Below, piece after piece: positions 3,592 through 34,651 of a stretch of DNA of 35,233 bases (its first letter is position 1; each line of letters starts with the position of its first letter). The DNA is from a virus (lineage: Duplodnaviria > Heunggongvirae > Uroviricota > Caudoviricetes), in the IMG/VR virus record IMGVR_UViG_2529292998_000007, positions 1 to 35,233 of that record; one strand, 5' to 3'. Under the pieces are notes generated by a model. It saw only the letters and a program-made list of their open reading frames with translations, was not told where the DNA came from and searched no databases. The position numbers were made by a program, and so were the translations under genes.

Positions 3592-6039
3592 TTAACCGTC
3601 ATGCATCATGCTGGCACGGGCGCGCGCACGTTTATCCCGCTCGTATTTTTCGAGCGCATCCTGTAACTGGCGGTCAAGCTGTGTTCCCGGCGCAGTACCG
3701 CCCGTCAGGTTGATGTGATATTCGTTTTTACTCTGGTCCACATAAGAGCGACCAGCCGGTGCCGTGACCGGCTGATAAGCCTGATAGCCTGCATAAGAGC
3801 TGGTCGCCGGAATATAACCACCGGTGCCATACGTGGCGGCATGAGTCCTTGCGGCGGTCTGGTCAAGTGTGTCTGACTCTTTGTTGATAACACCGAGTTT
3901 TTCCAGTACCCAGTCAATACCGCTGCGCAGTTTGTTGAACGCATTAAGCGGCAGCATCAGCGCGTCAGCCAGTGCCTGCCCGAACATGACGCCCGTGTCA
4001 CGGCAACGGTTCAGGGTGTCCTGGGTGGCTTTGACCGGGGCAATCAGGTTTTTAAACCACTGCCACGCGGCCTGTAACTTTTCGCCCAGCCAGTCAAACA
4101 CCGGTTTCAGTGGCGTGAACAGCTCCCCCACCGGCGCAAATGCCGCTTTCAGCCCTTCAACCACACCGCCAAAGAATGCGCTGACAGGCTCCCAGTATTT
4201 ACGGATAAGCAACGCCCCGGCGACAATGGCGGCCACCACAGCCACAACCGGCCAGCTAATCGCCCCGATGGCCGTCATAACGGCACTACCAACCGTCGTG
4301 AAGATTGCCCCCATTGCGCCTGCTGCCGCGATGATGGCATTGATGCCGGTGATAACCGGCCAGGCTACAAGACCAATTGCACCGATGATGCCAGTAAGCG
4401 CCAGCGCACCACCGGCAATGAGGCCAATGGTTGACGCCAGTGATTTGTTTTTCTGTATCCAGCCGTCGAGTTTTAACACATACTTTGTGGCCGTCTGCGT
4501 GAGCTTACGTAGCGCGCCTTCCTGCTGGTCAAACAGGTCAGTCCCCACCGCCTCATAAGCGGACTGAAACTCCTTAAAGTCACCGCCGAGGTTGTCCTGC
4601 ATGATATTTACCAGCTCTGCGGTCTTTCCGTCTGAGGCTTTAAACGCAGCGGTCAGTTTGTCCAGCTTTCCGGTTGAGGCGGCAGTCATCAGCACGGCGG
4701 CGGCTGAACTGGCCTCCTCCCCGAAAATGGTTTTCATGTATTCAGCCTGCTGGGCAGTACCGAGCCGGTTTTTCTCAAAACTGGCCTGCATTTCTTTCAG
4801 AATGGTAAATACTGGTCGGGTGTTTCCCTTACCGTCTGAGGTTTTCACACCAAGCTCTTTGAGTGCATCCCATGCTTTTCCCGTCGGTGCCTGCAGGCGG
4901 CTTAACACGGCACGGCTTCCCGTCCCCGCCATTGAACCGGTAATTTTTGCATCATGCAGCGCTCCGACCATTGCGGCGGTTTCTTCAATGCTGACACCGG
5001 CATTTTTTGCCACAGGTGCGGCATAGGTCAGCGCATCGCTCATGCCGTCAAAATCGGCGGCGGTTTTGTTCATCGTCATGGAGAGAACATCCCCGATATG
5101 AGCGACCTTATCGTTTGAAAGCTGAAAGGCGGATTTCATCCCCATCAGCAGGGCGGCGTTTTCTTCCATCGTGCGGCGGTTCGCCAGTGCCATATTCAGC
5201 GTGACCGGCGTTGCCGCCTGAATGGCATCAACATCCCCACCGGCTTTCGCAATGATAATCTGTGCACCGGCTGCATCATCCGCCGAGGCGGCAGTATTGT
5301 CACCGAGCTGGCGCGCCTGCTTGCGGAGCGCGGTCATTTCGGCGGAGTCTTTTGCCACACCGAGCACGGCCTGCAATTCTGAGTTTTTCTGCGCAAACTC
5401 ATAACCGGGCATCAGCAGCTTAACACCGGCCATCGTTCCCGCCGCCGCAATCCCCACACCGGCAGCGCCCACCGAGGCCATATTTCCTGCCAGTTCCTTT
5501 CCGGCCTGATAACGCTGTTTGACTGCGTTAAGTTTGGCCTGTTGCGCACTGACACGCGCCAGCGCGTCACGCTGACGGTTAAGTTGTGCGGTGGTTTCAC
5601 TGATACAGTTTTTCAGTCCCTGCTCATCATGTGCAAGATTGCGGGTATTAATTCCCACAGCGGCCAGTTCCCGCTGCTGGCGTTTAACGGAATCTGTCAG
5701 GCGGTTATATTTCGCCTGTAAGTCCTCCGCCGCACGCTTTGCGGATTCCAGCACTTTCGCCTGAGCACGGGTCGGACGTTCGGTGTTTTTAAACTGTGTG
5801 GCAAGGGCTTCGGCCTCCTGCCGTGCCTTTTCAAGTGCATGACCAGTTACGGCAAGCTGTGCGCTGGTCTTACGGAATCCCTCAATACGGGATGCCTGAC
5901 CGTTCAGCTCGCGCAGTGATTTTTGTGTTTCCCGGATATCCCCCGACAGCGACTTGCTCGCTGTGCGGATGGATTTAAACGGGCGGGATGCCTGGTCAAC
6001 AGCCCTGAGCAATACCTGTAATTTTACATTGTTACTCAT
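3592..6039 (-). CDS. T: Tail tape measure protein T
   Basis: 815 aa; N-terminal coiled-coil, Ala/Gly-rich hydrophobic central segments typical of tape measure proteins; same length as P2 gpT. Confidence 0.9.
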   Translation of the reverse strand: MSNNVKLQVLLRAVDQASRPFKSIRTASKSLSGDIRETQKSLRELNGQASRIEGFRKTSAQLAVTGHALEKARQEAEALATQFKNTERPTRAQAKVLESAKRAAEDLQAKYNRLTDSVKRQQRELAAVGINTRNLAHDEQGLKNCISETTAQLNRQRDALARVSAQQAKLNAVKQRYQAGKELAGNMASVGAAGVGIAAAGTMAGVKLLMPGYEFAQKNSELQAVLGVAKDSAEMTALRKQARQLGDNTAASADDAAGAQIIIAKAGGDVDAIQAATPVTLNMALANRRTMEENAALLMGMKSAFQLSNDKVAHIGDVLSMTMNKTAADFDGMSDALTYAAPVAKNAGVSIEETAAMVGALHDAKITGSMAGTGSRAVLSRLQAPTGKAWDALKELGVKTSDGKGNTRPVFTILKEMQASFEKNRLGTAQQAEYMKTIFGEEASSAAAVLMTAASTGKLDKLTAAFKASDGKTAELVNIMQDNLGGDFKEFQSAYEAVGTDLFDQQEGALRKLTQTATKYVLKLDGWIQKNKSLASTIGLIAGGALALTGIIGAIGLVAWPVITGINAIIAAAGAMGAIFTTVGSAVMTAIGAISWPVVAVVAAIVAGALLIRKYWEPVSAFFGGVVEGLKAAFAPVGELFTPLKPVFDWLGEKLQAAWQWFKNLIAPVKATQDTLNRCRDTGVMFGQALADALMLPLNAFNKLRSGIDWVLEKLGVINKESDTLDQTAARTHAATYGTGGYIPATSSYAGYQAYQPVTAPAGRSYVDQSKNEYHINLTGGTAPGTQLDRQLQDALEKYERDKRARARASMMHDG

Positions 6040-6459
6040 TCGTGTTTCCGCTTCGCCGGAGCGCCTTTTCGCGCCATGTGATGAGTTCGGTCAGGCTCAT
6101 GGGATACAGTTCTGATGGCGGCCAGTGAAATATCACTGCCACATCCGCCATCAGGTCATCGACCGACAGATTTTTCGGGAACGTTACTGCACCGAGTTCG
6201 GCGACAAAAAACCGACCACCTTACCGGCCAGCGCCACAAGGTCAGGCAGTTCCAGCGCGGCGACTTCCTGCTCGGTCAGCATCGGTGCCGTCATGCGCGG
6301 CAGCACCTTAATCAGTGCATCGACTTCTGAGTTTGCGACCGCAGCCAGACTGACACCGCGCAGCGTCCCCGCACTGGGTTTCATCAGCGTGACCTGTTCG
6401 ATAACCTGCTCACCACGCTTGACCGGACTGTCCAAGGTAATCACATTATCTTTGTTCAT
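6032..6459 (-). CDS. E': Tail assembly chaperone E+E' produced by -1 programmed ribosomal frameshift at TTTTTTG
   Basis: Slippery heptamer TTTTTTG (minus strand, + coordinates 6205-6211) near the 3' end of E; my manual translation of the -1 frame gives VAELGAVTFPKNLSVDDLMADVAVIFHWPPSELYPMSLTELITWREKALRRSGNTNE ending at 6032, overlapping the T start. Confidence 0.65.
6184..6459 (-). CDS. E: Tail assembly chaperone E
   Basis: 91 aa (MNKDNVITLDSPVKRGEQVIEQVTLMKPSAGTLRGVSLAAV...), located between FII and T; matches P2 gpE. Confidence 0.85.
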   Translation of the reverse strand: MNKDNVITLDSPVKRGEQVIEQVTLMKPSAGTLRGVSLAAVANSEVDALIKVLPRMTAPMLTEQEVAALELPDLVALAGKVVGFLSPNSVQ

Positions 6460-7046: not shown

Positions 7047-8237
7047 TTAATTGCTGTTAACCGAGGTGACCAGATTTGCCAGGTATTTATCGGTAATACG
7101 CTGGCGCAGGGTCAGGTTTTCGAGAGGAGGCACCGGTGTATAGTCGTAGTCGATATACAGTTTTCCGGCCTTGAGGGTTTCCGCATCGTTGGATTCTTCG
7201 CTGAACCAGCAGGTCGCATCCACGATATAGCCGTTTGTTTTCAGCTCACGGAATTTGGCATTGATGCCGTCAACGATGTCGCGAATCAGCGTTGCGGTGA
7301 TGGGCTTGTCCACCGCCCACATGTGCGCCTCAGCCATCGTGTCGGCCAGCACCTGCGCGGTGCGGGTGTAGTTTTCAAAGAGGAACAGCGGGTCATCAGA
7401 GCAGGTACGGTTACCCCAGAAGCGGAAACCGTCACGGCGAATCAGCGTTGTGACGCCTGACTCGTTAAGCAGGTCAGCATCGGTGCCGGACTCCTGCAAA
7501 TCCCAGAATACGGACGCGCTGATGCCGGTAACACCGTTCACCCCGACGTTGGACAGCGTTTTATGCCAGCCCTGCTCCTGGTCGATTTTAGCGCGCAGAC
7601 CCAGCGCACGGGCGGTGGCATACGCGGTGGCGGTGGTACTGGCGACCGTATCCCATGCGAGGAAATCCGGCCAGATGACCATCAGCTCACGCTGGCTGAA
7701 ATTCTGGCGGTAGGCTTTCACCTCGGAAATGGTCTTACAGCCCCATGCGCTGATATACCCGAAAGCGCGCAGCTTCTGACAGACTGATGCCAGTGCGACG
7801 GCAACCTCTTTGGTGTCCAGTCCCGGCACACCGAGAATACGCGGTTTAACACCGGTTACCGACTCCGCCGCCAGCAGGGCTTTCAGTCCGGTGTACTGAC
7901 CGTTTTCGTCGGTGGTGCCGATGATATTGGAAACGGTCTGCGCAAGTTTCGTTTCTTCGTCATCGCCGTTGCCGTCTTCCACGCGCACGACAACGGTGAC
8001 CGGTTTTGACTGGTCAGCGATGGCCTGCAACGACGCCGCCAGCGTGCCTTTTTTACCGGCCTTTGCAATTGCGCTCTGCACGTTGGTAATCAGCACCGGT
8101 TTATTGAGGGGGAAGGTTTCCGCATCCGCATCGCTGGCCGTGCAGACCATGCCGACAATGGCCGTGGATACGGTGGAAATGACGCGGGTGCCGTCGTTAA
8201 TCTCCAGCACCTGCACGCCGTGATGATAGTCACTCAT
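7047..8237 (-). CDS. FI: Contractile tail sheath protein FI
   Basis: 396 aa; position and size match P2 gpFI. Confidence 0.9.
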   Translation of the reverse strand: MSDYHHGVQVLEINDGTRVISTVSTAIVGMVCTASDADAETFPLNKPVLITNVQSAIAKAGKKGTLAASLQAIADQSKPVTVVVRVEDGNGDDEETKLAQTVSNIIGTTDENGQYTGLKALLAAESVTGVKPRILGVPGLDTKEVAVALASVCQKLRAFGYISAWGCKTISEVKAYRQNFSQRELMVIWPDFLAWDTVASTTATAYATARALGLRAKIDQEQGWHKTLSNVGVNGVTGISASVFWDLQESGTDADLLNESGVTTLIRRDGFRFWGNRTCSDDPLFLFENYTRTAQVLADTMAEAHMWAVDKPITATLIRDIVDGINAKFRELKTNGYIVDATCWFSEESNDAETLKAGKLYIDYDYTPVPPLENLTLRQRITDKYLANLVTSVNSN

Positions 8238-8632
8238 CCGTTTAACTCCGTGGTTAATGGGTGCAACTATTTTCTGTTGTGCAGAGCATGAGACGCTATT
8301 TGACCTGGCTGGTCAGTGGATGAAACAACAGATAAAGAAAAGGCGGGCAACTCGCCCGCCCGTCCTGATTTGTACTCACTCATTTTTCAACTGACAATTT
8401 ACCTAGCCCAAAAGCTATCAAATCAGACAGTCTGCTTTGAGCGAACAGCGGAAGTTCGGAATATATACTGACATAGACGTGTTTTCTTGCGGTGGCCAGT
8501 TTTTGTTGACCACTTCATTGTACCTAATCTTGGAGGTTGATCAGTTAACCCTCATTTTTGCGGGTTAACTGAAGTTAGGCTTACTGTGTATAGATAAAAC
8601 AAGCGTTTTTCCAAGTTACCTTAGAAAAAGCC

Positions 8633-9565
8633 TTAAGTTAGAAGCCGTTCCTCGTAATCGTCGGTTGTGGGCATTTTTCCGATCTCTGTCATGCGACACA
8701 CTAATCGGGATAAAAGCACTCGAACCTCAATTATATGCTCAACTAAAAAGTTATCTGACGTAGCTCCCCCATGCACTGCCTTCGAACGGTAGTCATACAG
8801 CTTCTTAACCCTACGATAGGTGGCTAAACGATCAGGTCCTCGCTCCTCAAGATATGCTGCGGCCATAAGAGCAAGACGAAAACGAAGCTCTGAATTGATT
8901 CCAAAGAGCGCTTCAAATCCTGCCCATAAAGCAGCAGCAGCCATTCTCAAATTCGCGTGTTGGTTGTGAGTTGTTAAAGAATCAATAGCGAGCCGGAATG
9001 CTGGTTGCTCTAGCAGATCTATCCAACGCTTGAGATTCTCTTGAACCCAGTCGAGAGACTCTACTGATATCTCTACACTTGGGCTTATTCTCCGAACTGC
9101 CGGCACGTCCTCAAGAAGTTGGACTTCACACGAGTTGGCTTGAAGAGCAGGGAATACATCCCAAGATGCACTTGCTACTGCAGGAACAAGTATATCGGTG
9201 AGTGTGCGGCATCGGATCGCGGATATGATCCACCATCCGATAGTCAGGTCTGATTGAGAAAATTTCGACTCACTGCTTTGCAACGCAAGCTCATGCGTAA
9301 CTGCGGGCATATGACGAGCAACAGCGCTGAGTAGCGACTTGCTCTTAAGCGCTGTGGCTAACTCTATCTCTCCTGGTGGATGAAGTACCTCCCTTAATTC
9401 ACCTACGTCTTGGAAAACATAAGGCCCGTTTCGAAACGTCAATCCTGACAAAGCGAAACAGATCTCATTCTGACTGGATAAACTAGATATTCGAGTTGCA
9501 GCGTATTTCTTGCGAGACTCGAAGTAGTTAAGTAAACCTGACAATTTTTCTTTGTTGATTTCCAT
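8633..9565 (-). CDS. Hypothetical 310-aa cargo protein at the P2 Z/fun position; no family assigned (contains one R-x4-H motif, RSKAVH, which is weak HEPN-like evidence only)
   Basis: Single long ORF flanked by non-coding DNA (8238-8632 and 9566-9718) between FI and G; composition differs from the neighbouring tail genes; no similarity to a P2 structural protein that I can recognise. Confidence 0.5.
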   Translation of the reverse strand: MEINKEKLSGLLNYFESRKKYAATRISSLSSQNEICFALSGLTFRNGPYVFQDVGELREVLHPPGEIELATALKSKSLLSAVARHMPAVTHELALQSSESKFSQSDLTIGWWIISAIRCRTLTDILVPAVASASWDVFPALQANSCEVQLLEDVPAVRRISPSVEISVESLDWVQENLKRWIDLLEQPAFRLAIDSLTTHNQHANLRMAAAALWAGFEALFGINSELRFRLALMAAAYLEERGPDRLATYRRVKKLYDYRSKAVHGGATSDNFLVEHIIEVRVLLSRLVCRMTEIGKMPTTDDYEERLLT

Positions 9566-9718
9566 ATTCCCAAGCTTAGAATTTTCGCTATTGTGTACCG
9601 TATATTACACAATAGCTTAGTTAGGGCGTAGGCGTCCGCTTTTGGTACAGAGCAGACTGTCAGATTAAGTTTTACTCTGTGCCATAGATACGTTAGCTCA
9701 CTCCAGATATCATACAAC

Positions 9719-10246
9719 TTATTGCGGTATTTCCGGCCATTCAGGATTTGCAGGATCCACACGGCTGACCAGAACGCTGTAGCGTTCCCATGACTCCAGT
9801 CGTGCGCGCTCCTCATCCGTCGCCATATTCAGCCTGACGGCGCGTTCCAGCGGCTGAATAACGCTTTCCGCTTCGGAAAGTAACGCGGCCTTTTGTGATT
9901 CTGCCTGTTGTTGCTGTTCATCTGCCGTATAAATCCGTTTAACCACAGCACCATCCTTAAACATCCATTTACCTGAGTCGTCAGCACGTCGATTGGAGGT
10001 AATATCAGGAACCTCAACAACGCTAAAACCTTCAGGATTAAGCGTTGAAGCATCTCTGGTGATGGCGACAATAATATTATTTTCATCGTAAACAATCTTT
10101 ATTGTGTCTGGCTGAAAGTTCTTCACTTCCTCATACCAGTTTTTTCCGTCTTCGGACCATAACCAGATAACATCAAAATTCTTTGTTAGCTGATATTGCT
10201 CTTTTGTTTTTGGATTACCTGACTTAATGTTCTTTAAATGCTGCAT
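9719..10246 (-). CDS. G: Tail fiber assembly protein G
   Basis: 175 aa, directly downstream of the tail fiber gene; acidic C-terminus typical of gpG-family chaperones. Confidence 0.82.
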
Positions 10247-14768: not shown

Positions 14769-15554
14769 ATGGTCAGCTATAATGTGACTAATGTGTGGGG
14801 GCTAATCGTTTTTTTCCTTTGTAGCTTTGCAGTATTAGCATTTTTTAGTTTTGGTAAAAGTAACCTTATGAGGCTTATTGCACATTATTTCAATTTTGGA
14901 TATTCAGACAAAAAATTAAAAAGACTTGACCGCGAGTGGCGCGACATTCAACTATTTAAAATAATTAACGGAATCAATGTATCAGGCATTGAAAATGTGA
15001 GAATGATACAGCAGGGACTGATTGATGGAAAACTAAAAACATCGTATTTTTTCCTTACTCGCATCTGGGGTGACATAACAAAACCACCACACATAATTAA
15101 AACAATAATTGTAATTCTGTCCAGTATTTTTTACATTCTCCTCGCATGTTACATACACAACGAACAATCCGTTATAGTAAGGGATGCCATAGGCATACCA
15201 TATAAAAACATGATGTACTATGTTTATAGTGACAAAGTTCTTTTATCCTTCAAAAATAAAGCAGTTGAATTTAATAAAACTTATAGCCTTGCCAATTGCA
15301 AGAGACTGCAAAACGTATTTATAAAAGACACACTTCCTGAGATCGCCTGCAATAAGCTCTTACAGCTAAACGAGGAGAACTCCGAATGGTTAAGCCAGGA
15401 GATTAAAGATAATAACAGTCACAAAAAAGCATTATTAATACTATCCCTCGTCTATTTCACTTCAGGTCTGGTTATATTCCTGTCATATACAAAATTCTTT
15501 TACGCCAATAAGAAGGTTTTAGAATACAAAGCATCAAATAAAAATCACTCATAA
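14769..15554 (+). CDS. Hypothetical 261-aa predicted membrane protein (moron at the S/V junction); function unknown
   Basis: Markedly AT-rich ORF on the opposite strand to all flanking late genes; three hydrophobic helix-length segments (VWGLIVFFLCSFAVLAFFSF, IIKTIIVILSSIFYILLACYI, ALLILSLVYFTSGLVIFLSYT); followed by a hairpin. Confidence 0.6.
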   Translation: MVSYNVTNVWGLIVFFLCSFAVLAFFSFGKSNLMRLIAHYFNFGYSDKKLKRLDREWRDIQLFKIINGINVSGIENVRMIQQGLIDGKLKTSYFFLTRIWGDITKPPHIIKTIIVILSSIFYILLACYIHNEQSVIVRDAIGIPYKNMMYYVYSDKVLLSFKNKAVEFNKTYSLANCKRLQNVFIKDTLPEIACNKLLQLNEENSEWLSQEIKDNNSHKKALLILSLVYFTSGLVIFLSYTKFFYANKKVLEYKASNKNHS

Positions 15555-25127: not shown

Positions 25128-27065
25128 TTAGTTCAATAAATCTTTATCAAGAGCGGTATAATTTATCTTTAATGATTTATCATCTGGATTAAAATACCGA
25201 CCAACAATCAAATCGGTATTTTCATATTCTGGATTAATCTCCGATGTCGCATAAATTATTTGAAAATCATATTGATATGATTGAGTTTCTTGTACTATTA
25301 TTTTCTGCAGATTGTGACTGCGCTCTTTCTCCATTCCACCATCGTCAATTCCATCAAGCATTAGGAAACGAGGTAATCTCATGTATTTTTTTTCAATACT
25401 TGCAGTTAACAATGCTAAATGAAAGAGATGTCTTAATACAACTGCTGAACTTTCTGAAAAATACTTAGACCCATTTACATAAACAGTATTATCGGCAAAG
25501 CTAAAATTAACTTTTCTAGGATCAATAAATTCAGTCTGCAATGGAAGATCTTTTTTAAGAAGTCTTTTCATAATGTTTTCTATAGTTTTAGAAATATCCT
25601 TCTTCCTATATTCCTCTTTACTCTCCAAAGATTCAATTAAAGAGGACAATCTCTCCTTCTCTGACTGCAGACTATCACGATCTTTTTGCAAATCAGATAT
25701 TACATCACTAAGTTTTTGTAATTCACAAGCCTGTTTAATTTCTTCTTCAACACGTCCCAGAGCCTTAGTAAGAGTTTCAAACTCTATTTCATAGGCATTT
25801 TCCCAAACCTTAGAGACTTCTTCATATTCACGAATTAAATCTCGCACTTTTTGCTTTAAAGCAGGAGATTGGCTCTTAAGCTCTCTCAGTTTTACATAAT
25901 TATGCTCAAGAAGATCTCTGGATTCTTTTAATTGGATAGAAATCTCATTTTTCATCCTTAATAATTGAGGAGCATCACTACCCTCTGGCGCGTGATTTTT
26001 ACATAATGAGCACTCATTTTCAGAGGAAATATTCAACTCACTTAAACAACTGGGACAAAATTGAAATTTAACGTTGCTAAAATAGTCTCTGGCAATACTT
26101 GATTCATTAAGAGAGCGCAATCTGGATTCTAACTCATTAATGAACATTTCAGAGTCAGCTATCTCCATTTCTAACATATGGATACTGTCAATATTTTTTA
26201 CTTCTTCTTCCTTCGCTTTATTTAAATTTTTTCGAAGGTTGTTAGTTTTAGTTTTATCAGCATTTTTATCATTAACAGAAGAGTTATTACTCTCTTTGAG
26301 AGAGATAAGCTCGCCATTGATCTTTTCTTTCTTCTCTCTTAGCTCTTTTATTTTATCGTCAATAAAACTTACATGCTGCGATTGCCCAGAGCGTCCAAGA
26401 ACTTTAAATATGCTTTTCAGCTCAACAATTTTTGTCGAAAGTTCAGCATCAACCTGTTTAAGCCTAATCAAAGAGCTATAAAGTTTGTCATCAAATATAC
26501 CACATAAATAATCACCAATAGTCTCTCGTGTTAGAGCTCTATCAAAATTATCGTTCCTAAATATAGGACTATGAAGAGATGGCTGATCTGCATATAATAC
26601 ACGTAGGATTTGATGCATTGTTAAAATTGAAGCACCCTCTCCTTGAGCTAGAGGCATATCTAAAGCATTTAGAATTACCTGAGAAAAACTCAGTGATTTT
26701 TCTGAACGCTTAAAAGGATAAGTTTGCCACTGACTCGGTGATGAGTTAAGAGCTTTATCCATCGAGCCCCAAAAAATACTCAACGGTCGCATGGATTCTG
26801 AACTTATCTCCCGCTTAAAACAGGCAAGATTATTATTCAAAAGCACTTCAACCATGGTAAATGAACATAAAAGAGCTGTTGGTTTCAAGCTAATATTTTC
26901 AGCACCAAGTGAAAATGCTAAAAGATCCATAACAGTAGTTTTGCCAGAGCTATTTCGCCCCCTTATTACATTTACCCCTTTATGGAAAACACAGCTAAAT
27001 GCTTCATGCCCAGCTTGGAAAACTTTTAATTTACTAACAAAAAAAGATGGATTAAGAATAGTCAT
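25128..27065 (-). CDS. Rad50/SbcC/RloC-like ABC-type ATPase with central zinc-hook-like CxxC-x13-CxxC motif; last gene of the cargo cassette
   Basis: 645 aa; Walker A GRNSSGKTT at residues 35-43; long Lys/Glu-rich heptad-like segments flanking CPSC...CSLC at residues 337-355; C-terminal hydrophobic stretch ending in Asp (RFLMLDGIDDGG) consistent with Walker B; AT-rich. Confidence 0.7.
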   Translation of the reverse strand: MTILNPSFFVSKLKVFQAGHEAFSCVFHKGVNVIRGRNSSGKTTVMDLLAFSLGAENISLKPTALLCSFTMVEVLLNNNLACFKREISSESMRPLSIFWGSMDKALNSSPSQWQTYPFKRSEKSLSFSQVILNALDMPLAQGEGASILTMHQILRVLYADQPSLHSPIFRNDNFDRALTRETIGDYLCGIFDDKLYSSLIRLKQVDAELSTKIVELKSIFKVLGRSGQSQHVSFIDDKIKELREKKEKINGELISLKESNNSSVNDKNADKTKTNNLRKNLNKAKEEEVKNIDSIHMLEMEIADSEMFINELESRLRSLNESSIARDYFSNVKFQFCPSCLSELNISSENECSLCKNHAPEGSDAPQLLRMKNEISIQLKESRDLLEHNYVKLRELKSQSPALKQKVRDLIREYEEVSKVWENAYEIEFETLTKALGRVEEEIKQACELQKLSDVISDLQKDRDSLQSEKERLSSLIESLESKEEYRKKDISKTIENIMKRLLKKDLPLQTEFIDPRKVNFSFADNTVYVNGSKYFSESSAVVLRHLFHLALLTASIEKKYMRLPRFLMLDGIDDGGMEKERSHNLQKIIVQETQSYQYDFQIIYATSEINPEYENTDLIVGRYFNPDDKSLKINYTALDKDLLN

Positions 27066-27552
27066 ATCTAAACTCCATTAACTTCGTTCTATCTTTTAAA
27101 CCATCTTTTCCAACCAAATGGAATTTAGATAGTGTGTCTATGATAAATGTATTAATAGTTTTATTCGTATTAATAAAATTATTAATAGAAAGTAATAAGC
27201 CATCTGGAACAGACTTATCTGTTCTCTTTATAATGTTTTTCTCAAGACAATCCATCTCAACCAACCCAGTAGCTGCAAGACATCTTATTGCTGCCATTTG
27301 AATTTCATACATATCTCTGAATGTAGATGTAACATTAATAGGATCCCGATATATATTAGAATACTTCTTCGCTTCTTTCTTCATTGAAGAATAATTATGA
27401 GGCATTCTAATTTCAGATACCAAAGCAGGAAATAGCAGATAGAAGTCCAAAATCCTAGCCTTATCTACCTCAATTTCATTTACATGGTCTATAAGAGCAA
27501 TCATTCTGAATAAACAATGATATGCATCATATGCTGGATGGTAAATTAGCAT
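27052..27552 (-). CDS. Hypothetical 166-aa protein, third gene of the cargo cassette
   Basis: ORF overlapping both neighbours (by 7 bp upstream, 14 bp downstream), suggesting translational coupling; AT-rich; no recognisable motif. Confidence 0.55.
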   Translation of the reverse strand: MLIYHPAYDAYHCLFRMIALIDHVNEIEVDKARILDFYLLFPALVSEIRMPHNYSSMKKEAKKYSNIYRDPINVTSTFRDMYEIQMAAIRCLAATGLVEMDCLEKNIIKRTDKSVPDGLLLSINNFINTNKTINTFIIDTLSKFHLVGKDGLKDRTKLMEFRYDYS

Positions 27553-28109
27553 TTATCCCACCTTATATGGCAATTGCCACCCAGAAAAAATAGTAATCCC
27601 AAGAGATCTTTTGCTGTTAGCTCTAGCAAGTTCTCTCCCAAAGACGAATATAATTCATCAATTATTGAAGCGATTTTCTCATCAACAATCACTCTGGAGC
27701 TATCCGCTTCTATAAGTGGTGTTACTTTCGTTATAAAATCAAAATGAATTTGATCTAAAATTATTACAAATATTCTTTGTGCAGTTTTTGACGTCTGGCG
27801 ACGCATTATGGCTTTTGTCGCTTTTTCCTTCATCTGCTTAGCTAAAAACAACAAATCTTTTCTATTACTCTCGAGTAATTTAGCGTCTAACCCCCGAACA
27901 TCAATATCAGGCTGAAGGGACATATAATGCTCTAGTTCAGCACAAAACCCCGGAACCGCTTCCCCTATATCACCTCTCTTCAAACACTCATAAAGTTTCT
28001 GTATCTCCCTGTTAGTTCCTTTAACAGGATAATTGAATATATGATTAGTCTGATCACCAGAAATTATGTTGCCATTTGTTACGGTATTTCCTGACTGTTC
28101 GATAGACAC
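27546..28109 (-). CDS. Hypothetical 187-aa protein, second gene of the cargo cassette (Gly/Asn/Thr-rich N-terminus)
   Basis: ORF in the same operon-like arrangement; its N-terminus QSGNTVTNGNIISGDQTNH resembles the C-terminus of the upstream 63-aa ORF. Confidence 0.55.
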   Translation of the reverse strand: MSIEQSGNTVTNGNIISGDQTNHIFNYPVKGTNREIQKLYECLKRGDIGEAVPGFCAELEHYMSLQPDIDVRGLDAKLLESNRKDLLFLAKQMKEKATKAIMRRQTSKTAQRIFVIILDQIHFDFITKVTPLIEADSSRVIVDEKIASIIDELYSSLGENLLELTAKDLLGLLFFLGGNCHIRWDKC

Positions 28110-33637: not shown

Positions 33638-34651
33638 ATGGCAATCAAAAAACTCGATGATGGTCGATATGAAGTGGACATCCGCCCTACTGGACGTAAT
33701 GGAAAACGCATCCGTAGGAAGTTTGATAAGAAAAGCGAAGCTGTCGCTTTCGAGAAATACACGTTGTACAACCACCACAATAAAGAATGGCTATCAAAAC
33801 CAACAGACAAACGACGTCTGTCGGAACTGACACAGATCTGGTGGGATTTAAAGGGTAAACACGAAGAGCATGGGAAATCTAATCTTGGAAAAATTGAAAT
33901 CTTCACAAAAATAACGAATGACCCATGCGCATTTCAAATCACGAAATCCCTTATCAGCCAGTACTGCGCCACCCGAAGAAGTCAGGGTATTAAACCTTCG
34001 AGTATCAATCGTGATTTAACATGTATTAGCGGCATGTTTACAGCCCTGATTGAAGCGGAGTTATTCTTTGGTGAGCACCCTATCAGAGGGACAAAGAGGC
34101 TTAAGGAGGAAAAACCAGAAACAGGCTATCTCACACAGGAAGAAATTGCCTTACTGCTTGCAGCACTTGACGGCGACAATAAAAAGATTGCGATTCTTTG
34201 CCTGAGTACAGGAGCACGTTGGGGAGAAGCAGCTCGTTTGAAAGCAGAAAATATCATCCATAACCGCGTCACGTTTGTTAAAACGAAAACAAACAAACCA
34301 CGCACCGTCCCGATCTCAGAGGCTGTTGCCAAAATGATCGCGGATAACAAACGAGGTTTTTTATTCCCTGATGCTGATTACCCTCGCTTCAGACGAACAA
34401 TGAAAGCAATAAAACCGGATTTGCCAATGGGGCAAGCCACACATGCACTAAGGCACAGCTTTGCCACTCATTTCATGATTAATGGAGGAAGTATTATCAC
34501 GCTACAACGGATACTAGGTCACACGCGGATTGAGCAAACGATGGTTTACGCTCATTTTGCGCCAGAGTACCTTCAGGACGCCATTTCTCTTAATCCGCTA
34601 AGAGGTGGTACTGAGGCCGAGAGTGTCCACACAGTGTCCACAGTAGAGTAA
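33638..34651 (+). CDS. int: Tyrosine site-specific integrase (P2 Int family)
   Basis: 337 aa, the P2 Int length; C-terminal catalytic signature HALRHSFATH...LGHTRIEQTMVYAHF with the conserved R, H-x-x-R and Tyr; adjacent to attR. Confidence 0.9.
   Translation: MAIKKLDDGRYEVDIRPTGRNGKRIRRKFDKKSEAVAFEKYTLYNHHNKEWLSKPTDKRRLSELTQIWWDLKGKHEEHGKSNLGKIEIFTKITNDPCAFQITKSLISQYCATRRSQGIKPSSINRDLTCISGMFTALIEAELFFGEHPIRGTKRLKEEKPETGYLTQEEIALLLAALDGDNKKIAILCLSTGARWGEAARLKAENIIHNRVTFVKTKTNKPRTVPISEAVAKMIADNKRGFLFPDADYPRFRRTMKAIKPDLPMGQATHALRHSFATHFMINGGSIITLQRILGHTRIEQTMVYAHFAPEYLQDAISLNPLRGGTEAESVHTVSTVE

Follow-up and report, generated by a model that had tools for sequence, protein, structure and literature searches.

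The gene lying between the tail sheath and tail-fibre assembly genes of a P2-like prophage raises the question of what its product does and which partner benefits from it. The window, that is the whole stretch of 35,233 nucleotides analysed, holds a complete P2-like prophage reaching from a host peptidase U32 gene at the left end to an integrase gene (33638-34651). The gene and its neighbours are as follows.

7047..8237, minus strand: FI tail sheath gene, flanking (Pfam Phage_sheath_1)
8633..9565, minus strand: cargo ORF with ATG start, 310 aa, stop codon included (ORF list; RefSeq WP_001403134.1)
9719..10246, minus strand: G tail-fibre assembly gene, flanking (Pfam Caudo_TAP)

An initial annotation of this DNA had placed a 310-aa ORF between FI and G, with 395 bp and 153 bp of DNA on its two sides. 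This placement was borne out, since the ATG-started ORF was recovered, both flanking genes were confirmed by Pfam and the gaps measure 395 bp (8238-8632) and 153 bp (9566-9718). The position is also, as had been recognised, the variable Z/fun site: P2 has fun(Z) here and other P2-like phages have unrelated genes, among them orf44, a gene for a SMEK-domain protein and HAD plus NUDIX. Three validated defence systems have been described at this second P2 locus, the Z/fun hotspot, by Vassallo et al. (PMC9519451). The region is 99.6% identical to a prophage of E. coli LD27-1, and a divergent P2-like viral contig, the sheath of which is 72% identical, encodes, likewise between fibre and sheath, a homologue of 88% identity. 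The description of the ORF as isolated holds in so far as both gaps are non-coding, but has to be modified in that parts of the gaps are conserved P2 backbone, namely 8238 to approximately 8465, with the PF promoter region and a terminator, and 9633-9718. The remainder forms a discrete cassette, and GC is 0.45 across it compared to 0.57 in FI.

Two further regions of the prophage resemble cargo. A three-gene block of low GC (0.31-0.38) occupies 25128-28109 on the minus strand, in the tin/old hotspot, which is flanked by the portal side and replication gene A.

within 25128-28109, minus strand: LmuB-like SMC/AAA_23 ATPase, 645 aa (PADLOC LmuB, E 4.5e-47)
within 25128-28109, minus strand: ABC-3C middle component MC5, 166 aa (Pfam, E 1e-52)
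within 25128-28109, minus strand: ABC-3C CTD9 protein, 187 aa (E 2e-29)

Judged by these matches the block is a defence system of the Lamassu/ABC-3C type, and both P2 hotspots are accordingly loaded in this prophage. Moreover, a 261-aa ORF (14769-15554, plus strand) lies in a sharp GC dip of 0.34-0.44 and is oriented against the baseplate and late genes around it. Neither Pfam nor PADLOC gave a match, the LD27-1 annotation calls the ORF hypothetical, and it may mark a third cargo site.

The distribution of the cargo gene in E. coli shows that it rides a small mobile cassette bounded by inverted repeats.

8429..9657, unstranded: 1229-bp cassette, consisting of the gene with 204 bp on its 3′ side and 92 bp on its 5′ side
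8421..8452, unstranded: left arm of a 32-nt imperfect inverted repeat bounding the variable region, 81% complementary
9635..9666, unstranded: right arm of the 32-nt imperfect inverted repeat, 81% complementary
L003 6001-7229, L066 3001-4226 and L071 ~4911-6136: cassette copies in other genomic contexts

Only one of 5,426 complete E. coli genomes contains the entire 1481-bp region, and another 25 share only 8429-9657, at about 99% identity. Three further contexts, each with a 99% identical cassette, were found: a Qin-like lambdoid prophage, in the interval from hokD/rem to the DUF977/replication genes; a chromosomal island from paoD to IS1/tRNA-Pro; and another island with acyltransferase, MarR and autotransporter genes. 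Most of the examined E. coli copies occupy the hokD-DUF977 site. In the carriers inspected, several in number, the cassette ends agree to 1-3 nt across four contexts, the P2-like prophage included. The inner ~24 nt of the inverted repeat (GTCYGCTYTGWRCSAAMARCGGA) move with the cassette, and what lies further out in each arm belongs to the conserved P2 backbone. Homologous repeats are annotated as 'left/right inverted repeats' in the Z-region of P2-EC31 (AJ512677), where the left arm described here is the 'right inverted repeat'. No target-site duplication is visible at any cassette junction inspected, the 1.23-kb cassette encodes no transposase, and no genome with an empty lambdoid site was found: the hokD and DUF977 flanks are present separately in approximately 3,285 of the 5,426 genomes and never abut. 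The hokD-DUF977 interval is itself variable (L003, L065, Qin-like prophages), and in ATCC 25922 it holds a gene for a 595-aa DUF4209 protein.

The initial annotation could not assign the protein to a known family, and extensive searching led to the same outcome. None of the Pfam, NCBIfam and PADLOC models matched at E<=10, the sole family-model match being PHROG 28161, which is labelled 'unknown function', and RefSeq names the protein 'HEPN domain-containing protein'. The curated HEPN families covered (Pfam Abi_2, AbiV, DUF4145, HEPN_Apea, RiboL-PSP, Swt1-like and others; NCBIfam) gave no match to the query at E<=10. HEPN models likewise matched none of 35 diverse family members at E<=1, and model scans of 20 more distant relatives, Pfam HEPN models included, found no family. 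The query has no match in PADLOC-DB v2.0.0, which covers ApeA, the PD-T4/T7/lambda systems, PDC candidates and HEC systems, and the 35 members yielded a single spurious PtuA match (E 0.03, in one of them). A sequence-profile search of the PDB at E<=10 gave no HEPN chain, only spurious matches to vasohibin-binding protein, and a literature search by accession found no description of the family. The protein nevertheless belongs to a coherent set of proteins of ~300-320 aa, distributed over Enterobacteriaceae, Pseudomonas, Burkholderia, Planctomycetota, Acidobacteriota, Bacillota, Bacteroidota and other phyla. In an exhaustive profile search the number of matching cluster representatives was 3,746 at E<=1e-3, falling to 680 at E<=1e-10 and to 181 at E<=1e-30. 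A head-to-tail pair of diverged family paralogues (~289 and ~303 aa) is present in three Sphingomonas genomes (L038 6616-8396; L039 5334-7171; L040 4093-5870), which may represent a heteromeric variant of the system.

The genomic neighbours of the family bear on whether the protein acts alone. ORFs were called in 35 non-redundant family loci and the three genes on each side were clustered, and no neighbour cluster recurred beyond chance. This supports the standalone part of the effector role suggested in the initial annotation. The neighbours vary, and they are genes typical of defence islands or mobile elements: a RES + HEPN_RES_NTD1 protein, a 1309-aa NACHT protein, HerA helicase, SMC/AAA_23 ATPase, Nuc_deoxyrib_tr-like proteins and integrase. 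Some family copies are found at integrase-adjacent prophage ends. In Enterobacter hormaechei (L004 6262-8939) a 74%-identical homologue is located at the cargo end of an island with an integrase and a D5/Pox_D5 primase, where it divergently adjoins an FRG-domain gene with a YjhX toxin gene nearby.

These data also address the possibility that the protein is an addiction toxin of a toxin-antitoxin pair, which would stabilise the prophage or the cassette and would be held in check by an antitoxin peptide or RNA encoded in the non-coding DNA of the cassette. Two elements of that DNA are relevant.

8341..8361, minus strand: intrinsic terminator, GC-rich GGGCGGGCGAGTTGCCCGCC followed by a T-run, conserved P2 backbone
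8592..8629, minus strand: AT-rich hairpin with a U-rich tract directly 3′ of the stop codon, from the fold of 8330-8640

The 3′ non-coding region (8330-8640, minus strand) folds into several hairpins and does so better than shuffled controls (z = -4.76), but part of this signal is due to the backbone terminator and the inverted-repeat arm, and the region is unconserved in more distant homologues. The hairpin at 8592..8629 is possibly a weak terminator of the cassette. Neither the 5′ nor the 3′ non-coding flank is conserved in homologues of 64-80% identity, a search of Rfam gave no match, and no MNT-type nucleotidyltransferase gene is adjacent. Taken together, the lack of a recurrent neighbour among the 35 loci, the unconserved flanks and the Rfam result make a conserved antitoxin or other partner unlikely, and a conserved antitoxin or non-coding partner was rejected on these grounds. 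We consider the toxin-antitoxin explanation rather unlikely.

A different possibility is that the gene serves the prophage's own cycle, its product being a ribonuclease for host RNA shut-off, transcript processing or the countering of host defence. The expression signals around the gene are in part compatible with this. Downstream of the cargo gene, the strong terminator at 8361..8341 precedes FI and the PF late promoter region, for which the P2 record annotates an activator site and a transcription start. On the other side of the gene, an inverted repeat of a different type was found.

9587..9616, unstranded: perfect 11-bp palindrome GCTATTGTGTA-N8-TACACAATAGC, 100% complementary, 22-51 nt upstream of the ATG and inside the cassette

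From its sequence the palindrome is a possible operator or promoter element, and no regulator gene is encoded nearby. As a CRP site, a LexA box or a P2 Ogr site (TGT-N12-ACA) it was rejected by eye on half-sites and spacing, an Ogr site being unlikely also because the palindrome is too near the ATG for a site centred near -55. No sigma-70 consensus promoter was found upstream of the gene on the minus strand. Nor was a terminator found between G and the cargo start codon, and this prophage lacks the one located after G in P2, so read-through from the late V operon is possible. These two features, and the orientation of the gene with the late V-W-J-I-H-G operon, count in favour of this possibility. 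They are countered by the wider distribution of the family and of the cassette. Many family members reside in non-phage chromosomal neighbourhoods beside defence-type genes (NACHT, HerA, SMC, RES), the identical cassette occurs in unrelated phage types and in prophage-free islands, and tblastn against 50,697 sequenced phage records found no homologue. A ribonuclease acting for the benefit of the phage cycle is therefore an unlikely explanation.

The fold of the protein was predicted with AlphaFold2 from an alignment of 35 sequences, and the resulting model (pLDDT 91.7, pTM 0.89) has two domains. The C-terminal domain and its motifs are listed here.

8636..9070, minus strand: C-terminal all-helical HEPN domain, approximately residues 166-310 (AlphaFold2 model)
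8771..8788, minus strand: R260-S-K-A-V-H265 (RSKAVH), predicted catalytic Rx4H (conservation; positional rule of PMC3710099)
8876..8890, minus strand: E226-L-R-F-R230, Ex3R at the start of helix 228-239 (conservation; rule of PMC3710099)

The initial annotation had regarded one RSKAVH motif, the coordinates of which were reproduced (residues 260-265, 8788..8771), as compatible with a HEPN-type ribonuclease site but as weak evidence for it, and had stated that the lack of a phenotype together with a structure prediction without a HEPN-like fold would speak against its reading. In the model the C-terminal domain has the four-helix up-and-down bundle core that defines the HEPN superfamily, made up of helices 206-221, 228-239, 244-264 and 271-295. 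The Rx4H motif is placed where helix 244-264 ends and the loop begins, with helix 271-295 next. According to the rules of Anantharaman et al. 2013 (PMC3710099), the residue after the R is polar, most commonly N, D or H, and a second acidic residue lies in helix 2, typically as Ex3[KR]. Here the polar residue is S261, a rarer choice, and the second conserved acidic motif is E226-x3-R230 (ELRFR), in agreement with Ex3[KR]. Conservation was counted in an alignment of 269 family sequences from many phyla, the denominators being the aligned members at each position. R260 is kept in 256/256 members and H265 in 253/255; G266 follows with 252/255, S261 with 241/255 (the others mostly C or N), E226 with 252/260 and R230 with 250/260. 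These motif residues (Rx4H, S261, E226/R230 and G266) are the most conserved positions of the whole protein. By our rough estimate ~0.4 Rx4H motifs are expected by chance in 310 residues, but R260 and H265 are near-invariant in the aligned family, and the motif is for this reason not a chance occurrence. The suggestion of a HEPN-type site is thus strengthened by the near-invariance of both residues, the helix-end position and the upstream Ex3R, and the C-terminal domain is a predicted HEPN ribonuclease of a large uncharacterised family. That the HEPN-like domain is instead a non-nuclease, binding a ligand or nucleotide or acting as a scaffold in a lysogenic conversion without RNA cleavage, is very improbable, as non-catalytic HEPNs typically lack the Rx4-6H motif (PMC3710099), whereas the R, the following polar residue, the H and the Ex3R pair are here the positions conserved best.

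The second domain of the model is of a different nature.

9071..9565, minus strand: N-terminal alpha/beta domain, approximately residues 1-165 (AlphaFold2 model)

Its conserved residues are G41, P64, E92, R118, W135, E152 and D153, and a conserved W173 falls in the first helix of the C-terminal domain. Foldseek, one of the comparisons suggested in the initial annotation, was run with the whole protein against PDB and BFVD (viral models) and returned nothing significant; in these searches and in the family-model scans no structural or sequence counterpart of the N-terminal domain was found. We propose that this domain is a sensor or regulatory module. In more distant relatives the HEPN part at the C-terminus is all that is shared, and the N-terminal regions before it are longer and of other kinds, a pattern that fits a variable N-terminus with a constant effector. 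In relatives of 450-635 aa the similarity is confined to the C-terminal HEPN segment (query residues ~213-270), and their long, dissimilar N-terminal regions have no Pfam match (for example L043 5615-7522; L055 5837-7465; L056 5705-7363; L060 5768-7261, among others). This suggests that the family is modular, with exchangeable N-terminal modules.

The hypothesis that we find probable, though by no means assured, is that the cargo is a self-contained two-domain HEPN ribonuclease on a mobile cassette, which would be inactive at rest and, once triggered by a phage, would bring about abortive infection. The C-terminal four-helix domain would form a metal-independent RNase site from R260, S261 and H265 together with E226/R230, and by analogy with other HEPN enzymes this site would be completed by homodimerisation. 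The family-specific N-terminal alpha/beta domain would most likely keep the nuclease inactive until a phage-derived cue is sensed. The activated enzyme would then cut cellular and/or phage RNA (tRNA, rRNA or mRNA), and this cutting would abort the infection and so protect the lysogen population and the resident prophage. From HEPN chemistry the cut ends would be expected to carry a 2′,3′-cyclic phosphate. A role in defence is favoured because of the P2 Z/fun hotspot, the variable lambdoid site, the integrase-adjacent ends and the defence-type neighbours. The notion of an enzyme that is inactive at rest and triggered by phage is favoured because Tha-1 and HepS, discussed below, set a precedent.

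One may speculate further that the N-terminal domain (~165 residues) is a new phage-sensing module that binds a conserved phage protein and allosterically activates the HEPN RNase; that thousands of proteins in different phyla belong to a new and widespread family of single-gene defences; and that the 1.23-kb unit is a true mobile defence cassette moved by recombination at the Z/fun-flanking repeats between P2-like phages, lambdoid phages and chromosomal islands. Taken jointly, these proposals are tentative and we regard the combination as doubtful.

A HEPN protein in the Z/fun hotspot will not surprise the specialist. The kind of protein is known, that is a single-protein HEPN abortive-infection effector in prophage hotspots, and the family itself is undescribed and outside Pfam and PADLOC. 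If the proposed role is true, a large cross-phylum one-gene HEPN defence family has been missed by both resources, and the few solo HEPN proteins linked to abortive infection (ApeA, Tha, HepS) would be joined by a further family. As a possible new phage-sensing module, the N-terminal domain, which is folded with confidence in the model and has no match, lends itself to study. The cassette is a natural example of one predicted defence gene that is found with identical ends in chromosomal islands and in the hotspots of a myovirus and a siphovirus, and since its ends lie inside the inverted repeat it bears on how the P2 Z/fun hotspot gets reloaded.

Among known systems, P2 Fun(Z) is the first to be compared, since its gene likewise lies between G and FI; according to the annotation of the P2 record it is non-essential and responsible for the exclusion of phage T5. 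The initial annotation had pointed to homology with Fun(Z) as a finding that would change its view. In pairwise BLASTP the best match to Fun(Z) (NP_046777.1) scored 25 bits (E 0.003, in a single comparison) and fell outside the HEPN region, and with no meaningful similarity homology was rejected. Fun(Z) has 528 aa and is encoded on the opposite strand relative to FI, whereas the 310-aa cargo gene is on the same strand as FI.

HepT/MntA type VII toxins (e.g. PDB 5yep, 7ae2, 8xdj) are single-domain proteins of ~130-140 aa which are always paired with an MNT antitoxin gene. The protein described here differs from these in that the window has no MNT ORF, no neighbour recurs in the 35 loci and a 165-aa N-terminal domain is added. 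ApeA was reportedly described by Gao and colleagues in 2020 as a single-gene HEPN defence system with a defence phenotype. Members of the ApeA/BMEI1217 family resemble the present protein in being single proteins with a family-specific N-terminal domain, a C-terminal HEPN and defence contexts (PMC3710099). ApeA-NTD1 is ~300 aa and mostly beta-strand (PMC3710099), whereas the N-terminal domain here is ~165 aa and mixed alpha/beta, and, apart from the spurious PtuA match, the models of Pfam and PADLOC, those for ApeA included, match none of the 35 family members.

HepS of the Salmonella prophage Gifsy-1 is a solo HEPN that is inactive by default and acts by abortive infection (Sargen et al. 2026, PMC13043305); it is activated by siphovirus tail-tip proteins and cuts tRNA anticodon loops (PMC13043305). 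Its gene stands without a partner in an accessory locus close to the replication genes of a lambdoid prophage, and the hokD-DUF977 site of the cassette is comparable to this locus. Compared by description, HepS homologues are shorter (<250 aa), carry the motif at R100-H105 and lack an additional N-terminal domain, whereas the present protein has 310 aa, the motif at 260-265 and an N-terminal domain. No obvious HepS copy was found in Gifsy-1 of LT2, where the only ~200-aa candidate, STM2620, is without Rx4H near residue 100.

The closest parallel in design is Tha-1 of Staphylococcus phage 80alpha, a prophage-encoded protein of 301 aa with R265-H270 (Rostol et al. 2024, PMC11087260), which is activated by phage tail proteins and degrades RNA non-specifically (PMC11087260). 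Homology was rejected: hhalign of the family profile gave E 0.64 against Tha-1 and a probability of 0.9% against the Tha family alignment. Pfam DUF4145 is found in some Tha homologues but matches 0/35 members here. Tha is accompanied by a cognate small inhibitor, Ith, encoded antisense. The 35 loci and the homologues of 64-80% identity show no comparable conserved neighbour or flanking sequence, though a lineage-specific inhibitor may be encoded elsewhere in the prophage. The N-terminus of Tha is predicted at low confidence in contrast to the confident alpha/beta fold found here. The architecture is nonetheless near-identical, an N-terminal half in which no known domain is recognised being followed by a C-terminal HEPN in proteins of 301 and 310 aa, with Rx4H at 265-270 in Tha-1 and at 260-265 here and an upstream E-x3-R that reads ELMCR and ELRFR, respectively. 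Both are prophage-encoded single effectors, the effector role being a prediction for the protein described here.
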